From assembly GCA_041182785.1 (NCBI GenBank), contig JBEGNB010000360.1:1-35924 (forward strand): a stretch of 35,924 bases of DNA. The letters run 5' to 3'. Shown here one piece after another: positions 8,601 through 27,341 of this stretch (within the stretch, counting starts at the first letter, position 1; every line of letters begins with the position of its first letter). The notes under the pieces were generated by a model. It saw nothing but the letters and a program-made list of their open reading frames with translations. It was not told the origin of the DNA and did not search any database. Origin of the DNA: Bacteroidota bacterium (GTDB lineage Bacteria > Bacteroidota > Bacteroidia > Chitinophagales > Saprospiraceae). Position numbers and translations under genes: made by a program.

Positions 8601-10934
8601 ATGTCTAAAAAGAAAAAACAAGGCGGTAAAAAGCTTACCGCCCGGGAACTGCAGATTGAAATTCTCAGGTTCCTGCTGCAGCGACCAAAGAAACAGTACG
8701 CCCCGCAGCAAATTGTCCACGAACTCCACGTCGAGAATAATAAAGATGCAGCAGAATATGCGCTGCAACAATTGGCCAAACTTGGTTCGGTAACCGAATA
8801 CTCCCTCAACAGATACGGAATTGCACTCGACCGCTTTGTCACCGAAGAGGAAGAGGAGCAGGTAGCAAAACCTGCCGTACAGGAAGAAAGGGCAAGGCCG
8901 GCGACCAGGTCACGCGAAGTCTCGCCACAGGCTCAGTCAAAAAACAGAAAAGTCATAGAAGGAAGGGTGGATATGACCCGTACAGGGGCCGCCTACATTA
9001 TTACCGATCAGATGGACTCCGATGTGTATGTGCCACAAAAACATATAAACGGTGCCATGAACGGCGACACAGTGCAGGTCATGTTGTTCCCGCCCCCGCC
9101 TGCCCGCAGACGCGGTATGCCCGCACGAAAACCGGAAGGAGAGATTCTTCAGGTACTCAAACGCGCCAACGAGATTTTCCTGGGTACCATCAAATTCAGC
9201 AGGAAGTACGCCATGTTCCTGCCCGATAACCCGAATATCCAGACAGATATATATGTACCCCTCGAAGCCTGCGGTGAAGCTGCCGATGGTGACAAGGTGG
9301 TCGTGGCTATCACTGACTGGCAGGAAGGAAAAGGAAGGGTGCCCATCGGAAAAGTAACACAGGTACTCGGAACAATAGGGGGGAACGACTTCGAAATGAA
9401 GAAGATTCTCATCAACTACGGGTTCCCGCTTCAGCATACAGAAGAAGCTGAAGCCGAAGCCGCTCGCATCCCCGATACCATTTCCCCTCAGGAAATTGAA
9501 ATGAGACGCGATTTTCGCGATATCCTCACTTTTACTATTGACCCGGAAGATGCCAAAGACTTCGATGACGCACTCAGTGTGCGCAAACTCGAAAACGGAA
9601 ATCTGGAGGTAGGTGTACACATCGCGGATGTAACGCACTACCTGAAACCCGGATCTCCGATGGACAAGGAAGCATTCGCCAGAAGTACCTCGGTATATCT
9701 CGTGGACCGGTGCAATCCCATGCTCCCCGAAAAACTTTCCAATAACCTGTGCTCGCTGGTCCCGGAACAGGATCGCCTCACTTTCTCTGCGGTATTCGAA
9801 TTTGATTCCAGTGACAAACTGGTGAAACGCTGGTTCGGAAAAACAGTCATCTACAGCGACAAACGCTTCAGCTATGAAGAAGCTCAAACTGTACTCGACA
9901 AAAATCCGGCACCTGAACTGAAAGCGCACCCGCTCTTCGGACAACTGGAAAAAGCTCTTTTTGACCTCAACAGAATAGCTGGTATCATGCGCCGGGAACG
10001 GGAAAAAAATGGTGCCATCGGATTCGAAACTGATGAGGTTCGCTTCCGGCTGGACGAAAACGGTGTACCCGTAGAGGCTTATGTAAAGGAACGGAAAGAG
10101 GCTCACCTCCTCATCGAAGACTTCATGCTGCTGGCCAATAAAGAGGTGGCTCTGTATATGCACCCGCCACTCAAACGGGAAAAAGCAGGAGAAGAACAGG
10201 CGTCAGGCAAGAACGGCGGTGAAATTCCTTTCATCTTCCGCGTACACGACCTGCCCGATATGAGCAAAATAACCGAATTCGCGCGGTTTGCTGCCGAAAT
10301 GGGACACCCCATGAAGGTGGATACACCCAAACAAATTGCTCAGTCTTTCAATAAACTGATGGTCGCCGCAAGAAAGGATGATCGCCTCAAAATCCTCGAA
10401 CCACTGGCTATCAGAACAATGGCCAAGGCGGTTTACTCATCCGACAATATTGGACACTACGGACTCGGGTTCACTCACTACTCGCACTTCACTTCTCCCA
10501 TACGGCGATACTCCGACGTACTGGCCCACAGGATTCTCGAACAAAATCTCAACGGGCGTACTTACCGCGTGGACAAGGCGAAACTCGAAGAACAGTGCAA
10601 ACACATCAGTAATCAGGAGAAAAAAGCCGCCGATGCAGAGCGGGAAAGTATCAAGTACAAACAGGCAGAATTCCTGAAAAAACATGTTGGCGATGTGTTT
10701 GAAGGTATCGTGAGCGGAATCATTGACAGGGGCTTCTTTGTCGAACTCCCCGACTCCAGGGCCGAGGGCCTGGTGGAATTCCGATATCTCGAAGATACAT
10801 ACACCATAGATCCCGGAAACCTGAGCGCTACCGGACGACGATACAAAAAACAAATCAGGATGGGCGACCGGGTGGATGTCAGGGTGGTCAGTGTTGACCT
10901 CAACCGCCGACAGATTGAAATGGATCTTGCATGA
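8601..10934 (+). CDS. rnr: ribonuclease R
   Basis: 777 aa. It has a basic N-terminus with an HTH-like region, cold-shock-like OB folds and an RNB catalytic core (TIDPEDAKDFDDALSV, HIADVTHY, YSHFTSPIRRYSDVLAHR). The C-terminal S1 domain is GDVFEGIVSGIIDRGFFVEL. Confidence 0.95.
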   Translation: MSKKKKQGGKKLTARELQIEILRFLLQRPKKQYAPQQIVHELHVENNKDAAEYALQQLAKLGSVTEYSLNRYGIALDRFVTEEEEEQVAKPAVQEERARPATRSREVSPQAQSKNRKVIEGRVDMTRTGAAYIITDQMDSDVYVPQKHINGAMNGDTVQVMLFPPPPARRRGMPARKPEGEILQVLKRANEIFLGTIKFSRKYAMFLPDNPNIQTDIYVPLEACGEAADGDKVVVAITDWQEGKGRVPIGKVTQVLGTIGGNDFEMKKILINYGFPLQHTEEAEAEAARIPDTISPQEIEMRRDFRDILTFTIDPEDAKDFDDALSVRKLENGNLEVGVHIADVTHYLKPGSPMDKEAFARSTSVYLVDRCNPMLPEKLSNNLCSLVPEQDRLTFSAVFEFDSSDKLVKRWFGKTVIYSDKRFSYEEAQTVLDKNPAPELKAHPLFGQLEKALFDLNRIAGIMRREREKNGAIGFETDEVRFRLDENGVPVEAYVKERKEAHLLIEDFMLLANKEVALYMHPPLKREKAGEEQASGKNGGEIPFIFRVHDLPDMSKITEFARFAAEMGHPMKVDTPKQIAQSFNKLMVAARKDDRLKILEPLAIRTMAKAVYSSDNIGHYGLGFTHYSHFTSPIRRYSDVLAHRILEQNLNGRTYRVDKAKLEEQCKHISNQEKKAADAERESIKYKQAEFLKKHVGDVFEGIVSGIIDRGFFVELPDSRAEGLVEFRYLEDTYTIDPGNLSATGRRYKKQIRMGDRVDVRVVSVDLNRRQIEMDLA

Positions 10935-10980: not shown

Positions 10981-13356
10981 GTGAAAATATCCCGTCTGAT
11001 CGTCTTCGCCGTACTGCTGTCGGCCCTAACCCCCTGTCTGGCCCAGGAACAGGAGGAAATCGAACGCACTACTGAAGAGGTGGAAACGCTGCTCCGACGA
11101 GCCGCTGCCTCCGCCAGCGATTCAGAAATTGAACAACTCGCCGGAAGGAGCCTGTCCATGGCACGCAGTGTCAGGTACGATGGAGGCATCATCCGCGCCT
11201 GTATCCGCCTTGCCGAACTTTTTGCCCGGCAAGGCAGAACATCCGAAGCGCTCCAGTATTACCTGGAAGCAGAAGCCAAACTGGAAACGAAAGGCAACAA
11301 GGAAACCCTCACCGCTGTGCGGATGGCTCTCGGCGATCTTTTCTTTCGGGAAAAAATGTACGGGTCTGCGAGAAGATACTATGATCAGGTACTTAAATCA
11401 ACGCCCGATAACCCGGAAATACTGGAAAAGGCCGCCGATGCCAGCCTGAATAATCTGCAATTCGAAAGCGCCGACAGTATTTACCAGCAACTGATCGCAG
11501 GATGCAGGGAATCATACAATCTTCCCTGTCAGACCAGAATTTATCAGAAACAAGCCGCCGCCTACGACCAGAACGGAAATTCAGGTAAAAGTCTTTACTT
11601 CTACCTGCGTATCAAGGACATCATTGAGCGATCAGGTACCACTATCGAACAATCGCTGCTTTACAATAACCTGGGCCGCCAATACGCAACGCTGCGCGAT
11701 TATGAAACAGCACTCGAATATTTCAGAAAAGCAGAATTGCAGTGTAAATTCATTGACTGCGACTATAACGAGATCCTGTTCGCCAATATCGGTATCGCAT
11801 TACACAACACCGGACAAACCAGAGAGGGTATTGAATATCTGCTGAAAGCCAGGGATATCCTGGTCGCCAGAAAGGACTTCGCTGCCATGGCGAATCTCGA
11901 ACACCTGCTCGCAACGGTGTATCTCAATAACGGTGATTTTTATAACGCCCTGTCACATAATAACCTGGCTGTCAGATATGCACAGGATACCCGACAGCAA
12001 CGTGTTCTGGCCGAGGCATACAGAACGGCAGCCGATCTCTATCACGAACTGTATGAGTTCGAAAAGGCTTTCGACAACTACAAGGCATATCTGAATATTC
12101 TCGATGCAGTCAGGACGGAAGAACAAGCCCGCGAAATGCAGCTCAGCCAGCAGCGAGCCCTGCTCTCCGAAGCCGAAGGACAAATCAAATTTCTGATTGC
12201 CCGGCAAAATTTCAAGGATCTGGAGTTGTCGCAACTACAGTTCGAAAGTGAAAAATTGTCGCTGCTCAATAAAAATCTGGAACTCGAAACCCGCGAAAAG
12301 GAAAATCAGCTTCAACTGCTGGCTGCTCAGAAAGATGCCGACCAGGCCAAGCTCCGGCAGCAAAGTCTGGAAGTACTGCGCTCCAGACAGGAATCAAAAC
12401 TGGCGGCCCAGCAGCTGGCAGCTGAAAAGCAAACCCGCCTGATTGCTGAACTCAGACAAAAAGAAACGATCGAACGGGCACAGAATATGGCCGACAGTAC
12501 GCGCCGGGCACAAGAACTCTACCGCGTACAGCAGGTACAGGAATATGAGCGACAGAAAGAGGCCAGCTTCCGGGCTTTCGTAACCGGGCTGGGCGCTCTC
12601 GGTGCCATCATCGTCGCACTCCTGCTCGTAGGATGGTGGCTGTCGCGACAAACCGGTCAGCGATTGAAAAACCAGAACCGGCAGATTCAGGAACAAAACA
12701 GGGAAATCGAAGAGGAAAGGCACAAAAGCGAAGGCCTGCTACTCAATATCCTGCCCGAGGAAATAGCCCGGGAGCTCAAGGAAAACGGACAGGCACGCCC
12801 CAAACTGTACCAGTCGGTTACTGTGCTGTTCACCGACTTTATCAATTTTACCCGGCTCTCCACACAACTGACGCCTGGTCAAATTATTGACGAGCTGAAT
12901 GAATGTTTTCTCGCTTTTGATGAAATATGCGAACGCCACAGGCTCGAAAAGATAAAAACTATCGGCGACGCGTACATGTGCGCGGGCGGGCTGCCCGTTA
13001 TCAACGACACGCACCCGACAGATGCCGTCAGGGCCGCTTTTGAAATGATTGACTGGCTCGAAAACAGGAATCGCCAAAACCCCAATGCACTGCTCCGGCA
13101 AATGCGCATCGGTATTCATACCGGCCAGGTGGTTGCAGGCGTTATCGGCAAAAACAAATTCGCCTACGATATCTGGGGAGATGCCGTCAATCTTGCCGCC
13201 CGACTGGAAGAACACGGTGAACATGGCAAAGTGAATGTTTCGGCCACCACTGCCGAGGCTGTCAGTCACCTGTACCGCGTAGAAAACCGGGGGGCATTTT
13301 CTGTGCATAACAAAGGTGACGTAGAGATGTTTTTTGTGTTCAACAGGGATAAATAG
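10981..13356 (+). CDS. membrane-bound class III adenylate cyclase with N-terminal TPR and coiled-coil sensor region
   Basis: A GTG start gives the signal peptide (V/M)KISRLIVFAVLLSALTPCLAQ. Next come about 350 aa of TPR-like repeats, a Q/E/L-rich coiled coil, and one TM helix (FVTGLGALGAIIVALLLVGWWL). The cyclase domain follows, with metal Asp residues (VLFTDF, IGDAYM), a substrate Lys (IKTIGD) and Asp (YDIWGD) that specify adenine, and the catalytic N/R (VNLAARLE). Confidence 0.85.
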   Translation: MKISRLIVFAVLLSALTPCLAQEQEEIERTTEEVETLLRRAAASASDSEIEQLAGRSLSMARSVRYDGGIIRACIRLAELFARQGRTSEALQYYLEAEAKLETKGNKETLTAVRMALGDLFFREKMYGSARRYYDQVLKSTPDNPEILEKAADASLNNLQFESADSIYQQLIAGCRESYNLPCQTRIYQKQAAAYDQNGNSGKSLYFYLRIKDIIERSGTTIEQSLLYNNLGRQYATLRDYETALEYFRKAELQCKFIDCDYNEILFANIGIALHNTGQTREGIEYLLKARDILVARKDFAAMANLEHLLATVYLNNGDFYNALSHNNLAVRYAQDTRQQRVLAEAYRTAADLYHELYEFEKAFDNYKAYLNILDAVRTEEQAREMQLSQQRALLSEAEGQIKFLIARQNFKDLELSQLQFESEKLSLLNKNLELETREKENQLQLLAAQKDADQAKLRQQSLEVLRSRQESKLAAQQLAAEKQTRLIAELRQKETIERAQNMADSTRRAQELYRVQQVQEYERQKEASFRAFVTGLGALGAIIVALLLVGWWLSRQTGQRLKNQNRQIQEQNREIEEERHKSEGLLLNILPEEIARELKENGQARPKLYQSVTVLFTDFINFTRLSTQLTPGQIIDELNECFLAFDEICERHRLEKIKTIGDAYMCAGGLPVINDTHPTDAVRAAFEMIDWLENRNRQNPNALLRQMRIGIHTGQVVAGVIGKNKFAYDIWGDAVNLAARLEEHGEHGKVNVSATTAEAVSHLYRVENRGAFSVHNKGDVEMFFVFNRDK

Positions 13357-13357
13357 C

Positions 13358-14530
13358 ATGAAAACTTATCGGATATCGCGCACTTACGCCGCCATAATCC
13401 TCGTGGGAGCACCACTGCTGATAGCCATGTTCGGCTGGATGCTCATTCAGCCGCTCCTGCCCGGCCCTCTCGACCCGTTTCTCGCAGAAACATACTGGCT
13501 CTTCGGACCGATGGCAGCAGTACTGGTACTGACGGGTGTGGCTGGTATTATAGATGTGTTCAACGGCCGTTTTGTCATTGAAGAAGACAGGGTATATGCA
13601 GTCAGTGTCATCTTTCGCCGGGAACTGCTGTTCGATGAAATTCTGGGTTTCACCGTTGATGACCGCTATATCACCATCAAACCTGTAAATCGAAACAGGA
13701 AAAAAATAAAAATCAGTCTGTCCTACGCCGACAGTCACGAGATTGTTCAGTGGCTGGCTGATCGCTACCCGGACCTGGACCTGGAAAGTGCCGCACAGGA
13801 AGACGACGATATTATCAGTTTCAGTTCGGGATGGTCGCAGGAAGAACGGGAAACCAGACTCGGAAAAGCCGTACAGGTGGTCCGGGTACTGAATATCACC
13901 GCCATACTGTCAGCAATATGGTACTTTTTCGTTCCGGTTATGCAAGTATTGGCACTGACAGGGGTCATACTCACTCCACTGGCAGTCGTGGCGGCAGTAA
14001 AATGGTCGGGCGGCCTGATTCGCTATAACGAAAGAAAATACAGTGTTCTTCCTCACGTATTTTTCGCGCTGCTTTTCCCCTGTATGAGCATATGCCTGCG
14101 CTCGATTCTTGACTACGAACTGATCGAATATGGCAGCGCCTGGCGTGTAGCATTGCCAGTATTGGGTGTACTGCTGATCGTCGTTTTCTCCGGCAGATCC
14201 GGATTCCGGTTCAGCAAGCCCGTCCATTATGTGGAAGCCGCTGTCATCGCAGCTTTTTTTCTGGCATACAGCTATGGTACGGTCACTGCCCTGAATGCAG
14301 CTCTAGACCGGTCAGCACCGGTGGAGTACCGGGCTGTTGTGACAGGGAAACGTATCAGTAGCGGAAAAACCACCTCGTATTACCTCGAACTTTCACCCTG
14401 GGGGCCCCGTACAGAAAAAAAGGAAATTTTTGTTTCATCCGATCAGTACGAGGAGTATGGTGAAGGGGAAGAACTGACTGTTTCAACCCAAAACGGGTTT
14501 TTCGGTATCCAGTGGTTCTATGTGGATTAA
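13358..14530 (+). CDS. polytopic membrane protein with N-terminal 2TM + bacterial-PH-like (YdbS/bPH_2-type) module; function unknown
   Basis: The ATG at 13358 is 1 nt after the cyclase TAG. Two N-terminal hydrophobic helices are followed by NGRFVIEEDRVYAVSVIFRRELLFDEILGFTVDDRYITIKP...EIVQWLADRY, a strand-rich block ending in a helix as in bPH domains. Then come about five more hydrophobic helices and an approximately 70-aa soluble C-terminus. The bPH call is pattern-based only. Confidence 0.55.
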   Translation: MKTYRISRTYAAIILVGAPLLIAMFGWMLIQPLLPGPLDPFLAETYWLFGPMAAVLVLTGVAGIIDVFNGRFVIEEDRVYAVSVIFRRELLFDEILGFTVDDRYITIKPVNRNRKKIKISLSYADSHEIVQWLADRYPDLDLESAAQEDDDIISFSSGWSQEERETRLGKAVQVVRVLNITAILSAIWYFFVPVMQVLALTGVILTPLAVVAAVKWSGGLIRYNERKYSVLPHVFFALLFPCMSICLRSILDYELIEYGSAWRVALPVLGVLLIVVFSGRSGFRFSKPVHYVEAAVIAAFFLAYSYGTVTALNAALDRSAPVEYRAVVTGKRISSGKTTSYYLELSPWGPRTEKKEIFVSSDQYEEYGEGEELTVSTQNGFFGIQWFYVD

Positions 14531-24370: not shown

Positions 24371-24406
24371 ACAAGACCGCAACCCGCGGTTGCAGTCTCC
24401 TCAATG

Positions 24407-24444
24407 TCCCGAATTCTTTCCTCGGAAGGAATTCGGGATTTTTT
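24407..24444 (+). terminator. rho-independent terminator after the T9SS gene, sitting on the stop codon of the convergent DUF4132 gene
   Basis: A 13-bp stem, TCCCGAATTCTTT (24407-24419) with AAGGAATTCGGGA (24426-24438), includes one G-U and has a 6-nt loop. T6 follows at 24439-24444. A second small hairpin, GCAACC-CGC-GGTTGC, lies at 24379-24393. On the minus strand the hairpin follows the gene's TAA directly but has no U-tract. Confidence 0.7.
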
Positions 24445-26899
24445 ATAGCTGTAACAGAATGGTAGGGTCAGTTATCTTTTCGTCACTGGCCAGAAGAATG
24501 GCCTTGCTGATGATGACAGACAAAAGCGTATCTCCTTCAAATGGCAGATATATCGGCTCTTTCTCACGCCTGGCAGCCTGATCCGGAACTATACACAGAT
24601 ACTTGTCATTCGGCGACATCAGTATATTGCCGCTGCCGCAGTGTATTTTATAAAGATGCCTGGTACCCTGCACCATCAGATAGCGCCCTTCGAAACGACA
24701 CTGCGGGGCAATCTTAAGCCGGGGTATCATTTTTTTCAGGGCCTCCAGACGCACCTCTCCACTGGCCGACAACTCCTCGGCAAAAGCATAGCGATTCCAG
24801 TAATCTCTCAGTCGCTGATTACCCGAATCCTGCCAGTTGGGATCATTCCCGATACTGCATACTCCCACAAACAGATCAACATCCCGCATCAACTCGGAAA
24901 ATACAACTGGTGGTACGTCCGGCATATTCACCTGACGACCCTGATGACTGAAACGCACCTGATCGGTATATACGTACTGGTAAATGCCTGAATCAAGTGT
25001 GTCGTCCAGATCATTGGTCTCTATCCAGAATTCAATGCGGTATTCCCAGGACGGTACGTCTTTGTGCGGGGTGACAGGATTGTAAAAGTCTCCCTGTAAT
25101 TTATAGTGCCAGCCTCGCAAACCACAAAGCGCAGCAAACTGATGCTGTCTGAGTACATGGGCAGCAAATCTGTTTGAATAGGAGCTGGTACGTATCTCCG
25201 GGGGCGTAACCACGTAAACTTCCCGGTACGCCTGTTTGAATGGCTGGGTAATCTGTCGCTCTTCCAGCCAGTTGCGCCAGGCCAGCACATCGCCAGCTTC
25301 TACCAGTATCGGGTGCCATAATGTAACACGGGCATCAGATGGAAAAATATTTGCTATTACACCTTCCGGACTGTGCCAGTTACCCTCATGGAAAATTGCA
25401 TCTATTGTTTTTGTTTCGTACTCCAGTCGCCACACAAGCCGGCGACCAATAAATTTCAGTACCGGATGATTGAGCAGCCTGTCGGCCAGCTGGGCACAAG
25501 TCCAGGTTCTTTTCTCCAGCCACGCAGATTCAAGCGTTCTGGAAATTCCACCCAGCGCATCTTTTATTTCACTCTGCCGGGCTGTAAGTGCCTTGTATGC
25601 TGCGGCCTGTTCTTTTTTAACGGATACCGGAGCCGATTTAAGTGTTTTCAGACTACCCCTCTGCATCCATCTGATCAAAACACTGGCATTATTTTCAATA
25701 CTGAGCACAGCTTCGTATTCCCCGAAATCGAAAGCAGCCATACCATTCTCATCCAGCCCGAAGTCGGGTATTCCGATCTCCATTAATGCCCCCGGGGTCA
25801 GATTATCGCGCGAGGCCAATTTTTGGAGTACTTTTTCAATTGTACCCCTGATTGTTTTATTCACTGCTCTCTTCTGCTGCCGAAGGATATGTATAATACC
25901 CGAATTATCGGGCATTAACGCAAAGGCATGGATACAGGCATTTCCGGTTTTCACAGAAAGCGGACCTATACCGGGTACTTTTTTAAACGACAAGTCTGCC
26001 AGATCGGAAAGTGCCTGCCTGATACCGGGCTCATCTGAAAGGCTCAGGCCTGCATACCAGATGAACGGAGAAACCCAGGCGGGAATATCCGGTTTATACC
26101 TCCACATATTCTGCTGATTCGGCAGGTTTTTATGGTCTGACCGAAGTAATTCGCACCATTTTTCCAAAAAAAGGACAGTTTTCCTTGCCAGCCTGACCTT
26201 GTCAAGATCTCCGGTTATTTCCGTCACATCCTTATTCCACTTCGGCGAAGGGGCACTTTTATCGCTGTAATCAAGACATAATTTAAGCAGCTCCCTTACC
26301 CTGGTATTATTCACTGCCAACAACTGACCCGTAACCGGAGCAAACTCCCCGTAATACCTGTCGGTAAAGAGTTCCCTGTACAATCCGTCGGAGTTGGTGG
26401 CTGAGGGAGAATTCAGTTCATCGAGTGTTTTTTGCTGAAATGCCGTCGGGAGAGCAGCCTTCTTCTTCAGCTTGATATACAAGTGTTTCAGGGAAAGGGC
26501 AAGCAATTCCCTTTTAATGAACGCGCCCTCTTTGTTTATAAAAGTTGCGAATAAATGAGCCAGCTCAAATTGCGCATCTATATTGCGCATCATCTGAATA
26601 TGCTGAATGAAGGAGGCCCAACTGCCTTCAGTATGTCCGGGAAGCAGTGTCCGAATCAGTTCGGAGACCCATACGCCTCCGGATTCCGGATCTTCGTCGA
26701 AGGCAACAATCAGCCGAATGACTACCTCGCTGCGGGTATCAGCGGGCATTTTTATGAGTTTTTTCCACGACTCCAACTGTTCCGGATGATGTACGGTACC
26801 CGTTGACATCTTCTCCGAAATATCAGAAATCAGGCTCCCTGTGTTATCTCTGCCAGCGAACCGATCCTTTAATATCTGTAAAAAACTGTACTTAGCCAC
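24443..26899 (-). CDS. DUF4132 / MolR(YehI)-like protein, function unknown
   Basis: 818-aa ORF. The C-terminal ~330 aa carry motifs I associate with the DUF4132 family and its conserved tail: LWHPI, QPFKQAYREVY, YSNRFAAHVLRQHQFAALCGLRGW, HCGSGNILMSPNDKYLCIVP, LSVIISKAILLASDEKITDPTI. The N-terminal ~480 aa are helical-looking with no recognised domain and no WGR motif. The start is a GTG at 26899 overlapping the upstream ORF by 8 nt; the first ATG is at 26809. Family call is from memory, with no HMM run. Confidence 0.6.
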   Translation of the reverse strand: MAKYSFLQILKDRFAGRDNTGSLISDISEKMSTGTVHHPEQLESWKKLIKMPADTRSEVVIRLIVAFDEDPESGGVWVSELIRTLLPGHTEGSWASFIQHIQMMRNIDAQFELAHLFATFINKEGAFIKRELLALSLKHLYIKLKKKAALPTAFQQKTLDELNSPSATNSDGLYRELFTDRYYGEFAPVTGQLLAVNNTRVRELLKLCLDYSDKSAPSPKWNKDVTEITGDLDKVRLARKTVLFLEKWCELLRSDHKNLPNQQNMWRYKPDIPAWVSPFIWYAGLSLSDEPGIRQALSDLADLSFKKVPGIGPLSVKTGNACIHAFALMPDNSGIIHILRQQKRAVNKTIRGTIEKVLQKLASRDNLTPGALMEIGIPDFGLDENGMAAFDFGEYEAVLSIENNASVLIRWMQRGSLKTLKSAPVSVKKEQAAAYKALTARQSEIKDALGGISRTLESAWLEKRTWTCAQLADRLLNHPVLKFIGRRLVWRLEYETKTIDAIFHEGNWHSPEGVIANIFPSDARVTLWHPILVEAGDVLAWRNWLEERQITQPFKQAYREVYVVTPPEIRTSSYSNRFAAHVLRQHQFAALCGLRGWHYKLQGDFYNPVTPHKDVPSWEYRIEFWIETNDLDDTLDSGIYQYVYTDQVRFSHQGRQVNMPDVPPVVFSELMRDVDLFVGVCSIGNDPNWQDSGNQRLRDYWNRYAFAEELSASGEVRLEALKKMIPRLKIAPQCRFEGRYLMVQGTRHLYKIHCGSGNILMSPNDKYLCIVPDQAARREKEPIYLPFEGDTLLSVIISKAILLASDEKITDPTILLQL

Positions 26900-27296
26900 C
26901 CACCAGAGGAGTTGTCTTGACGAAGGTAACAGTTGTTTTATCCGTCATTCTGAGCGGCGCCTCCAAATTTTCCACCTGTATATCGTCCACCAGAACGAAA
27001 TAGGCATTCTGCTGAAAAGCCTTGAGCGCCCTGTATCCATGAGCCTCCGGATCAGGCATTTCTCCGGGTTTGCGCTTTTCCCTGACACCATTCAGCGTAC
27101 GCTCTTTCTCGTCCATCTCGAAGGCGAGTGCCATGAACCGCTGATGTTTTTCATCCTCCCTTCTTTTGATTTCCTCTTCCACACGCAGCATGATAATTTC
27201 ACGAAGCGTCATTACTTCCGAACCAACAGGGACAGATATCTCCTGAATCAGTTTACCCGTCAGGGTTTCATCCTTGAACGTGACCGAAAATGCCAT
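26892..27296 (-). CDS. small ThiS/MoaD/ubiquitin-like (beta-grasp) candidate protein with free C-terminal Gly-Gly
   Basis: 134-aa ORF with an ATG start and protein-like composition. The N-terminus FSVTFKDETLTGKLIQEISVPVGSEVMTLREIIMLRV reads strand-turn-strand-helix. A ~50-aa charged insert follows. The C-terminus YFVLVDDIQVENLEAPLRMTDKTTVTFVKTTPLVGG-stop parallels MoaD/ThiS C-termini. The antisense ORF 26841..27302 has junk-like composition (rich in R/H/F/C). The fold call is inference. Confidence 0.45.
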   Translation of the reverse strand: MAFSVTFKDETLTGKLIQEISVPVGSEVMTLREIIMLRVEEEIKRREDEKHQRFMALAFEMDEKERTLNGVREKRKPGEMPDPEAHGYRALKAFQQNAYFVLVDDIQVENLEAPLRMTDKTTVTFVKTTPLVGG

Positions 27297-27341
27297 AAAT
27301 AATTTATTTTTGGAAAGGTAGGGATTAATTTTAAAACAAAA

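Follow-up and report, generated by a model that had tools for sequence, protein, structure and literature searches.

What is a small protein with a free Gly-Gly end doing in an operon with a large protein of the DUF4132 family? The question is raised by a 35,924-nt stretch of DNA from a Bacteroidota bacterium of the Saprospiraceae (GenBank assembly GCA_041182785.1, contig JBEGNB010000360.1, positions 1 to 35,924; hereafter the window), in which the gene for a 134-amino-acid (aa) protein overlaps the gene for an 818-aa DUF4132 protein. A first reading of the letters of the window (hereafter the original prediction) suggested that the two may form an undescribed module built around a ubiquitin-like protein. 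Here we show that the pair is conserved far beyond the window and propose what it may do: with a probability of about 0.45, the small protein is a carrier of the MoaD/ThiS/Urm1/small archaeal modifier protein (SAMP) class, activated by an E1 (ubiquitin-activating type) enzyme on behalf of an obligate partner, the DUF4132-DUF7737 enzyme.

The co-occurrence of the small and the large gene is reciprocal and near-obligate. Seen from the small gene, a homologue of the large protein is encoded directly downstream and on the same strand at 64 of the 70 genome loci with enough downstream sequence, and in 52 of these 64 pairs the genes overlap or lie no more than 12 nt apart; seen from the large protein, a small gene with the Gly-Gly end stands upstream at 49 of 50 metagenome loci, counting full-length large genes preceded by 450 nt or more of sequence. 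When the open reading frames (ORFs) from about 7 kb upstream to 10 kb downstream of the small gene were clustered across 84 loci, only three conserved families emerged, namely the two members of the pair and a ThiF-like protein, and the flanking genes otherwise differed between genomes; no conjugating (E2) enzyme and no JAB or other deconjugating peptidase was conserved in these neighbourhoods. Among 149 representatives, neither the small protein nor the E1 was found fused to the large one. A second word-indexed protein search, made with an alignment, brought up only 7 close relatives that were already known. The two genes thus form a self-contained module, and the synteny that the original prediction had called for extends over Bacteroidota, Actinomycetota, Cyanobacteria, Planctomycetota, Deinococcota and one metagenome-assembled genome (MAG) labelled Thalassovita. 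A mobile or defence origin was rejected, because the module has no phage match, its 30 plasmid matches fall mostly on non-mobilisable, often very large records, and neither protein is matched by PADLOC.

Several loci depart from the simple two-gene layout. In Rapidithrix thailandica JCM 23209 (locus L010:3267-17841), five tandem DUF4132-DUF7737 paralogues of 637-882 aa are arranged around a single small Gly-Gly gene (9971-10387), and one carrier appears to serve several large partners. On three metagenome contigs (L131:2234-6119, L132:1722-4825 and L096:85-2000), a small Gly-Gly gene directly follows a large gene and overlaps its end, which suggests tandem modules in which a further large gene lies beyond the examined part; at L103 the gene order is ambiguous, as the called 'large' ORF of 1151 aa spans the small gene. 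A further group (L030:10390-13001, L059:10430-12901, L071:10584-12967 and L028:10387-12450) consists of either decaying modules or assembly errors: in Pedobacter suwonensis and in two MAGs of Saprospirales type (labels Saprospiraceae and Saprospirales) the large gene is split into two ORFs, and at L028 the small gene is followed only by an 88-aa E1 fragment. Finally, small Gly-Gly genes at L025, L048, L053 and L083 (at about 10000-10390, and at 8631-9020 in L053) have neither a downstream DUF4132 gene nor a nearby ThiF gene and are orphan carriers; the L025 and L048 MAGs share conserved neighbours.

The small protein is itself a well-defined family of 127-140 aa, with 71 clusters in a word-indexed protein search and 191 matching stretches in a species-representative genome collection. 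Most homologues are from Bacteroidota, and the others come from Cyanobacteria (Pseudanabaena, Microcoleus), Planctomycetia, the Thalassovita-labelled MAG, Actinomycetota (Catellatospora, Microbispora) and Deinococcota. As expected from the first reading, they keep the terminal Gly-Gly: 140 of 142 distinct homologous genes end in GG-stop (118 in PLVGG and 14 in PLIGG), the two exceptions being ORFs at L089 and L100, and at L089 an adjacent second fragment ends in GG, which suggests a frameshift. All four Gly codons are used at both positions and all three stop codons occur among the 142 genes; selection therefore acts on the Gly-Gly of the protein, which does not simply follow from the start codon that overlaps it. 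Pairs whose genes are separated, by gaps of +1 to +84 nt, retain the Gly-Gly as well, and an alignment of 27 diverse small proteins shows no variation at P130, L131, G133 and G134. In scans of Pfam, NCBIfam, PADLOC and PHROGs the small protein matched no family, and a profile search of the Protein Data Bank (PDB) sequences with the small family gave no match. The missing Pfam or NCBIfam family is what might suggest a chance ORF or an annotation artefact, with a Gly-Gly that merely reflects the start codon of the next gene; this reading is ruled out by the number of homologues, the non-overlapping cases and the codon variety, is further contradicted by the detection of peptides of the Deinococcus homologue by mass spectrometry (PMC9650054), and retains practically no probability.

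Structure prediction places this tail on a plausible body. An AlphaFold model built with the 27-sequence alignment (predicted local distance difference test, pLDDT, 73) shows strands at residues 3-11 and 16-24, a long helix at 31-60, a second helix at 83-95 and four short strands within 99-127, together with a low-confidence stretch at 59-79 and a floppy tail at 128-134 (tail pLDDT 38). The first 20 Foldseek matches in the PDB are all beta-grasp proteins (MoaD in 6jc0 and 6jbz, NEDD8, SUMO, ubiquitin and ubiquitin-like domains), and human MOCS2A (5mpo), a MoaD homologue, follows at rank 25; hhalign of the small family against ubiquitin, NEDD8 and SUMO gave a probability of 0.1%. With moderate confidence, the small protein is a beta-grasp with a family-specific insert of about 45 residues; AlphaFold and Foldseek agree on the fold that had been predicted, with weak statistics (for the best matches E ~0.02, probability 0.9-0.97 and target-normalised TM score 0.4-0.58). 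Within the insert, E65, R66, L68 and N69 show full invariance or a conservation of 90% or more across phyla, and the ERxLNG motif they form is probably a partner-binding element. A carboxyl-terminal Gly-Gly that is invariant, flexible and needs no processing is what marks adenylated carriers.

An enzyme of the type that adenylates such ends is encoded beside the pair in many relatives. At 20 of the 64 genome loci, the stop of the large gene is followed at a distance of only a few bases by a gene of the ThiF/MoeB type for about 235 aa, in Pedobacter, Kordia (with Kordia algicida OT-1 at L039), Flavobacterium, Carboxylicivirga, Cyclobacteriaceae, Saprospiraceae and Lewinellaceae, which represent several Bacteroidota orders; at the other genome loci, no ThiF-family ORF was found within the 20 kb examined. 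Five of these cis-encoded E1s were scanned and matched Pfam ThiF at E values of 4e-57 to 5e-68; their nearest curated families were ThiF, MoeB and the SAMP-activating E1 UbaA (121-171 bits against the SAMP-activating E1 model), each below its equivalog cut-off, and against the 6A-MBL cap2_3 defence model they scored only 43-55 bits (cut-off 320). The cis E1 aligns over its whole length with E. coli ThiF (1zud) and retains GxGGxG, NLxRQ and DCTDN, lacks the CxxC zinc site, and in 19 of 20 cases keeps the crossover-loop Cys, whose aligned counterpart in E. coli ThiF precedes the TAGV segment. In the small-protein tree, E1-linked loci are scattered within one Bacteroidota subclade, and the clade of the window forms a separate deep branch without E1. 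Since the E1 adjoins the pair only in a minority of loci, the core module has two genes, with the E1 as an accessory whose gene often lies elsewhere. Among the moaD-moaE/moeB, thiS-thiG/thiF and cysO-cysM systems, likewise, the carrier is coupled to its user enzyme and the E1 is found in cis only sometimes.

The original prediction had described the pair as lacking any E1, E2 or JAB partner. For the window this holds: Pfam scans of 28 other window ORFs showed none of the three, and a hidden Markov model (HMM) profile made from the ThiF-type E1s of the relatives matched nothing in the six frames of the window. For the family it does not hold, given the ThiF/MoeB-type E1 at 20 of 64 loci. The further suggestion that the DUF4132 protein has a hidden activating activity was rejected as unneeded and unsupported, because a conventional ThiF-type E1 recurs as the third gene.

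The many modules without a nearby E1 might instead mean that the small protein is a regulatory or structural subunit, whose Gly-Gly tail serves only as a docking peptide and is never adenylated in genomes without a cis E1. Such a role is hard to reconcile with the carrier signature of the tail and with a dedicated ThiF-type E1 that has intact motifs, is tightly spaced and has been kept or gained in many lineages. The conserved ERxLNG motif of the insert suits binding, ubiquitin-fold proteins that act without conjugation are known, such as Hub1 (PMC4141198), and the Deinococcus homologue pulls down thioredoxin Trx1 (PMC9650054); on balance, we regard a purely non-covalent role as improbable.

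The large protein is where the chemistry would take place. Its model, built with a 100-sequence alignment from the representative search (pLDDT 88.6; predicted template modelling score, pTM, 0.77), consists of helical repeats over aa 1-376 and an alpha/beta part over aa 377-818. The DUF4132 assignment of the original prediction is borne out by Pfam (142.8 bits against a gathering cut-off of 27, with 178 of 179 profile positions covered), and a second domain, DUF7737, was recognized at the C-terminus (124 bits, cut-off 27). Across 100 large-protein sequences of about 33% identity, 38 positions are invariant and concentrate in aa 552-817; among them is a single Cys, C769 (codon at 24593-24595 on the minus strand), and H753 and D790 are invariant as well. 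Invariant or nearly invariant motifs of the DUF4132 domain are W528-H529-P530, QPFKQAxRE(V/I)Y and YSNR, and the C-terminal half also contains TDQVRF, MRDVDLFVGVxSxGNDPxW, YKIHxGSxNILMxPNDxYLCIVP and LPFEGD. The conserved C-terminal half looks like an active site, and the N-terminal helical-repeat region is probably a binding scaffold. Whole-chain Foldseek searches of the PDB and BFVD returned only generic ARM/HEAT/TPR-like repeat matches (E at least 0.008), and a profile search of the PDB sequences with the large family gave no match.

The same residues invite a ubiquitin-like conjugation pathway, in which an E1 would activate the small protein, Cys769 of DUF7737 would take it over as a thioester in the manner of a new E2-like enzyme or ligase, and the repeat or WGR part would select the targets to be tagged. 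This reading is favoured by the lone invariant Cys, close to an invariant His and an invariant Asp, of the domain that tracks with the small gene; the DUF7737 model (helix, short beta-meander, helices) and the motif around H753, N758 and Cys769 loosely recall the E2 arrangement HPN...Cys, the five Rapidithrix large paralogues could share one small protein as E2/E3 enzymes share one modifier, the crossover-loop Cys is present in 19 of 20 E1s, and a co-immunoprecipitation with the Deinococcus small protein yielded 157 proteins (PMC9650054). However, hhalign of DUF7737 against UBE2D2, UBE2I, UBE2N and UBE2L3, with sequences entered by hand, gave a probability of 0.2%, the neighbouring genes include no conserved JAB or other peptidase for deconjugation, and PADLOC found no match. 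Moreover, the known systems (Cap2 of the cyclic-oligonucleotide-based antiphage signalling system, CBASS, as well as Bil and Bub) encode E1 and E2 together or fused, whereas about two thirds of the loci here have no cis E1 at all. A minimal ThiF/MoeB enzyme can make an acyl-adenylate or a thiocarboxylate, and it is without the domains that hand a modifier over to an E2. Because most modules lack a dedicated E1 and the E1s that do occur are of this minimal kind, we favour a carrier with its user enzyme over an E2-like cascade, which we consider unlikely.

Not every DUF4132 protein has the small partner. The representative search with the large protein gave 8,922 clusters (50% identity) at E ≤1e-3 and 2,217 at E ≤1e-30, and some longer members of the family have a WGR domain at the N-terminus alongside DUF4132 and DUF7737. 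Of three such WGR-bearing proteins, P0147 is preceded by a gene for 129 aa ending in L-L-V-G-G and P0249 by a gene for 132 aa of unknown family, and P0222 has no small gene within 347 nt. Four DUF4132 proteins without DUF7737, namely E. coli YehI, a Spirillospora and a Streptomyces protein (both Actinomycetota) and one metagenomic protein, have no small Gly-Gly gene adjoining; thus, in this small sample, the small gene tracks with DUF7737. YehK was considered as a Gly-Gly partner of YehI and rejected, as it ends in ...NQEIE. Genes of the MoxR AAA+/VWA type adjoin E. coli YehI and a Streptomyces WGR-DUF4132 protein, with a SWIM gene also present in E. coli, and Pfam scans found no MoxR, VWA or SWIM gene in the window. 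The description of the window protein as 'MolR/YehI type' is therefore apt only in part. Like E. coli MolR (YehF/YehH) and YehI, it has a DUF4132 domain, and some members of its family carry the N-terminal WGR typical of MolR; however, YehI has no DUF7737, no upstream Gly-Gly gene and MoxR AAA+/VWA/SWIM neighbours, and the window protein differs from this type in having DUF7737 and no WGR. In one DUF4132-only case (L171:1932-3899), the gene is divergent to genes for PadR, a glyoxalase and an AlkZ-like protein (DNA crosslink glycosylase family), and a glyoxalase gene also lies after the module in Catellatospora (L001:12953-13384).

The only family member with experimental data is from Deinococcus, whose megaplasmids were reached by tblastn of plasmid records. 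The small homologue of D. radiodurans has 134 aa, ends in ...L-T-A-L-A-G-G and scores 51 bits against the family HMM (E 6e-18 as a single comparison); its gene lies 2 nt ahead of one for a 1626-aa protein with DUF5724, DUF4132 and DUF7737. The published DdrO-binding motif of DR_A0165, the 20-mer GGTTATGCTATTTACATAAC, stands 63 nt upstream of the small gene start (L173:442-461), and the pair is therefore DR_A0165-DR_A0166. As in the window, the gene for a small Gly-Gly protein immediately precedes that for a protein containing DUF4132 and DUF7737; DR_A0166 differs in its length and in its extra DUF5724 region. The DR_A0165-DR_A0166 operon is bound by DdrO and strongly upregulated on DdrO depletion, and the DR_A0166 protein increases after mitomycin C in an IrrE-dependent manner (PMC8533742). 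DR_A0165 has been studied as 'SEP068184', whose level rises on exposure to gamma rays or H2O2 and for which a structure similar to MOCS2 (5MPO) and to the MoaD-family SAMP1 was predicted (PMC9650054). Part of that work used tags at the C-terminus, which would block the Gly-Gly end. That study took it for a peptide confined to Deinococcus and did not mention its Gly-Gly end, DR_A0166 as a partner or an E1. It also denied a radiation/desiccation response motif (RDRM) that PMC8533742 reports for DR_A0165; the 20-mer is present in the sequence, and the denial appears to be wrong. Our literature searches brought up no description of the small-large pairing, a full-text search gave no paper that mentions DUF7737, and the work they returned on bacterial ubiquitin-like systems concerned only CBASS, Bil, Bub, SAMP and Urm1. 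The module thus appears to be undescribed as a pairing, as had been supposed, but its small component was already under study with a MoaD-like fold noted.

In D. radiodurans (L172:5206-7651), modA and an ATP-binding cassette permease gene lie downstream on the opposite strand, after a DUF99 gene, and in a Flavobacterium MAG (L038:5030-6507) the ORFs after the E1 have N-termini that, by eye, look like MobA and XdhC. Such molybdenum-related genes near modules are curious given the old 'molybdate' phenotype of molR, and the association is anecdotal.

Taken together, our data favour a model in which the small and large proteins would be made in fixed proportion and a ThiF/MoeB-type E1 would adenylate Gly134 of the small one. 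This E1 would be encoded in cis in about a third of the related Bacteroidota operons; for the window pair its gene would have to lie at another place in the genome, like moeB in relation to moaD-moaE. The activated end would be converted into a thiocarboxylate or another acyl-activated form, and the tail would be delivered into a catalytic centre in the C-terminal half of the large protein, including His753, Cys769 and Asp790 of DUF7737, while the helical-repeat N-terminus, with a nucleic-acid-binding WGR in some relatives, would hold the substrate. At least in Deinococcus, the module is part of the response to DNA damage and oxidative stress. The WGR fusions, the damage-inducible expression in Deinococcus and the assignment of E. 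coli MolR to the LexA regulon (PMC8533742) suggest that the chemistry is linked to stress and acts on proteins or nucleic acids rather than in cofactor biosynthesis; an SOS box (GAAC-N4-GTTC) was not present upstream of the small gene in 136 loci.

Several observations weigh against the carrier model. About two thirds of the genome loci have no E1 adjoining the pair, and an E1 is likewise lacking at all 60 metagenome loci that extend 750 nt or more beyond the large gene, so that the model depends on the assumption that a housekeeping E1 accepts the small protein. Sequence comparison lends no support, as hhalign of the small family against ThiS, MoaD, Urm1, CysO and SAMP1, with template sequences entered by hand, gave a probability of 0.5%. 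The Foldseek matches of the small protein are statistically weak (probability 0.66-0.97, E ~0.02-0.09, target-normalised TM score 0.28-0.58), which we attribute to the insert that makes up a third of the chain. For the C-terminal half of the large protein (aa 377-818), the whole-chain Foldseek search, in which this half was not searched alone, gave no structural relative, and the helical repeats, WGR fusions and five Rapidithrix paralogues make the large protein look more like a scaffold or sensor than like a small-molecule biosynthetic enzyme. No sulfurtransferase, rhodanese or cysteine desulfurase was conserved in the clustered neighbourhoods of the 84 loci, and deletion of DR_A0165 raises, rather than lowers, survival of H2O2 (PMC9650054).

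Diverse Gly-Gly carriers and modifiers have been characterized, and the module shares features with three groups of them. The MoaD-MoaE/MoeB, ThiS-ThiG/ThiF and CysO-CysM/MoeZ systems are the closest in design: a gene for a small Gly-Gly beta-grasp carrier is coupled just ahead of that for the user enzyme, the E1 is of the ThiF/MoeB type and encoded in the operon or elsewhere, and neither an E2 nor a JAB is needed. The tail of the window protein, T-P-L-V-G-G, resembles the MoaD-type ending P-P-V-T-G-G, and MoaD is among the best Foldseek matches. In contrast to ThiS and MoaD, the small protein has about 130 aa with a 45-residue insert and its own conserved motif, and shows no detectable sequence similarity to them; the large partner is unrelated to MoaE, ThiG and CysM, the cis E1 is without the CxxC zinc motif, and no cofactor or thiamine genes lie nearby. 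Urm1-Uba4, archaeal SAMP-UbaA and Thermus TtuB-TtuC, whose small proteins are dual sulfur carriers and protein modifiers, likewise combine an E1 of the ThiF/MoeB clade with a Gly-Gly end that needs no processing and have no E2/E3. Conjugation of Urm1 is coupled both to oxidative stress and to the persulfidation of cysteines (PMC9574740), reminiscent of the H2O2- and gamma-induced, thioredoxin-binding Deinococcus homologue (PMC9650054). However, these modifiers have no obligate large partner encoded adjacent to them. Finally, CBASS Cap2/Cap3, Bil and Bub also bring a ubiquitin-fold protein and an E1-family enzyme together in one operon (PMC10097602, PMC10557695, PMC11601596). Unlike them, the module has no recognisable E2, JAB or other peptidase, its E1 is minimal and unfused, it has no PADLOC or phage match, and its neighbours in the window are housekeeping genes.

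Within the window, re-reading of the sequence reproduced what the original prediction had described (Table 1): the coordinates, the P-L-V-G-G-stop ending, the GTG start of the large gene and the 8-nt overlap. The small ORF is coding from 27296 to 26895, with its stop codon at 26894..26892, and the protein ends in ...KTTPLVGG (last codons CCT CTG GTG GGT GGC TAA); the large ORF starts with GTG at 26899..26897 and ends at 24443. The overlap is of the kind associated with translational coupling and is identical (-8) in the closest relatives, loci L005-L007. Because relatives of 65-70% identity have 818-822 aa and share residues 1-30 (MAK..F.Q.L...F), the large gene starts at or very near this GTG and not at the ATG at 26809. 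Thus, each point on which the prediction could have failed, namely the family of the large protein, the fold of the small one, their synteny, the terminal Gly-Gly and the start codon, came out in favour of the pair.

Table 1. Features of the gene pair and its immediate surroundings in the window.
Feature	Position	Strand	Remarks
Small gene, 134-aa protein	26892..27296	-	Stop codon included; predicted beta-grasp with free C-terminal P-L-V-G-G
E65-R-T-L-N-G70 codons	27087..27104	-	Nearly invariant ERxLNG motif in the insert (alignment); residues 59-79 have pLDDT <50
Gly133-Gly134 codons (GGT GGC)	26895..26900	-	Presumed site of C-terminal activation
Overlap of small and large genes, 8 nt	26892..26899	-	GTG start of the large gene lies inside the two Gly codons of the small gene
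Large gene, 818-aa DUF4132-DUF7737 protein	24443..26899	-	Stop codon included; Pfam matches
N-terminal all-helical repeat region, aa 1-376	25772..26899	-	ARM/HEAT-like; model secondary structure and Foldseek
DUF4132 domain (PF13569), aa 418-597	25109..25648	-	Pfam E 1.4e-41
DUF7737 domain (PF24879), aa 715-818	24446..24757	-	Pfam E 3e-36; invariant H753, C769 and D790
Hairpin, 15 bp	24406..24439	no strand	Between convergent genes; terminator-like, closes the two-gene operon
Spacer, 45 nt, A+T-rich	27297..27341	-	Between the upstream OEP/TolC-like gene and the small gene; promoter possible, not established

The surroundings of the pair are ordinary. The hairpin separates the large gene from a convergent gene with a type IX secretion system (T9SS) tail, and the operon of the window is therefore one of two genes; the hairpin looks perfect, is flanked by an A-run and a T-run and could terminate in both directions. 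A sigma-70 promoter scan found no promoter on the minus strand at the spacer. The neighbours are OEP/TolC-like, FabH, GH109, aminotransferase and RNase R genes of the housekeeping kind, with no defence island. Elsewhere in the window, positions 10981-13356 encode a protein of 791 aa that has TPR repeats and ends in an adenylate/guanylate cyclase domain, and a 398-aa ORF without Pfam match (13334-14530) overlaps the end of this gene.

The DUF4132 superfamily includes the SOS-regulated MolR of E. coli and a radiation-induced protein of Deinococcus, and it has no known chemistry. Tying one large branch of it to a Gly-Gly ubiquitin-fold protein, and often to a ThiF-type E1, turns this gap into a concrete hypothesis, in which the need for adenylation, the formation of a thiocarboxylate or thioester and the role of Cys769 can each be tested. 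The observations on DR_A0165 ('SEP068184') and on DR_A0166 may be reinterpreted as concerning two halves of one conserved module. The module would add an E1-dependent carrier or modifier system to the few known in bacteria, one without links to thiamine, molybdopterin or phage defence and linked, in one organism, to how cells respond to DNA damage and oxidants. A bolder proposal, which we hold to be doubtful, is that it constitutes a widespread and unrecognised bacterial ubiquitin-like pathway, in which the DUF7737 Cys would accept the Gly-Gly end and the repeat or WGR part would direct tagging or sulfur relay to proteins or nucleic acids in the DNA-damage and oxidative-stress response. If true, the module would be a bacterial counterpart of stress-coupled urmylation or ubiquitylation and would provide the first biochemical handle on the DUF4132 superfamily.

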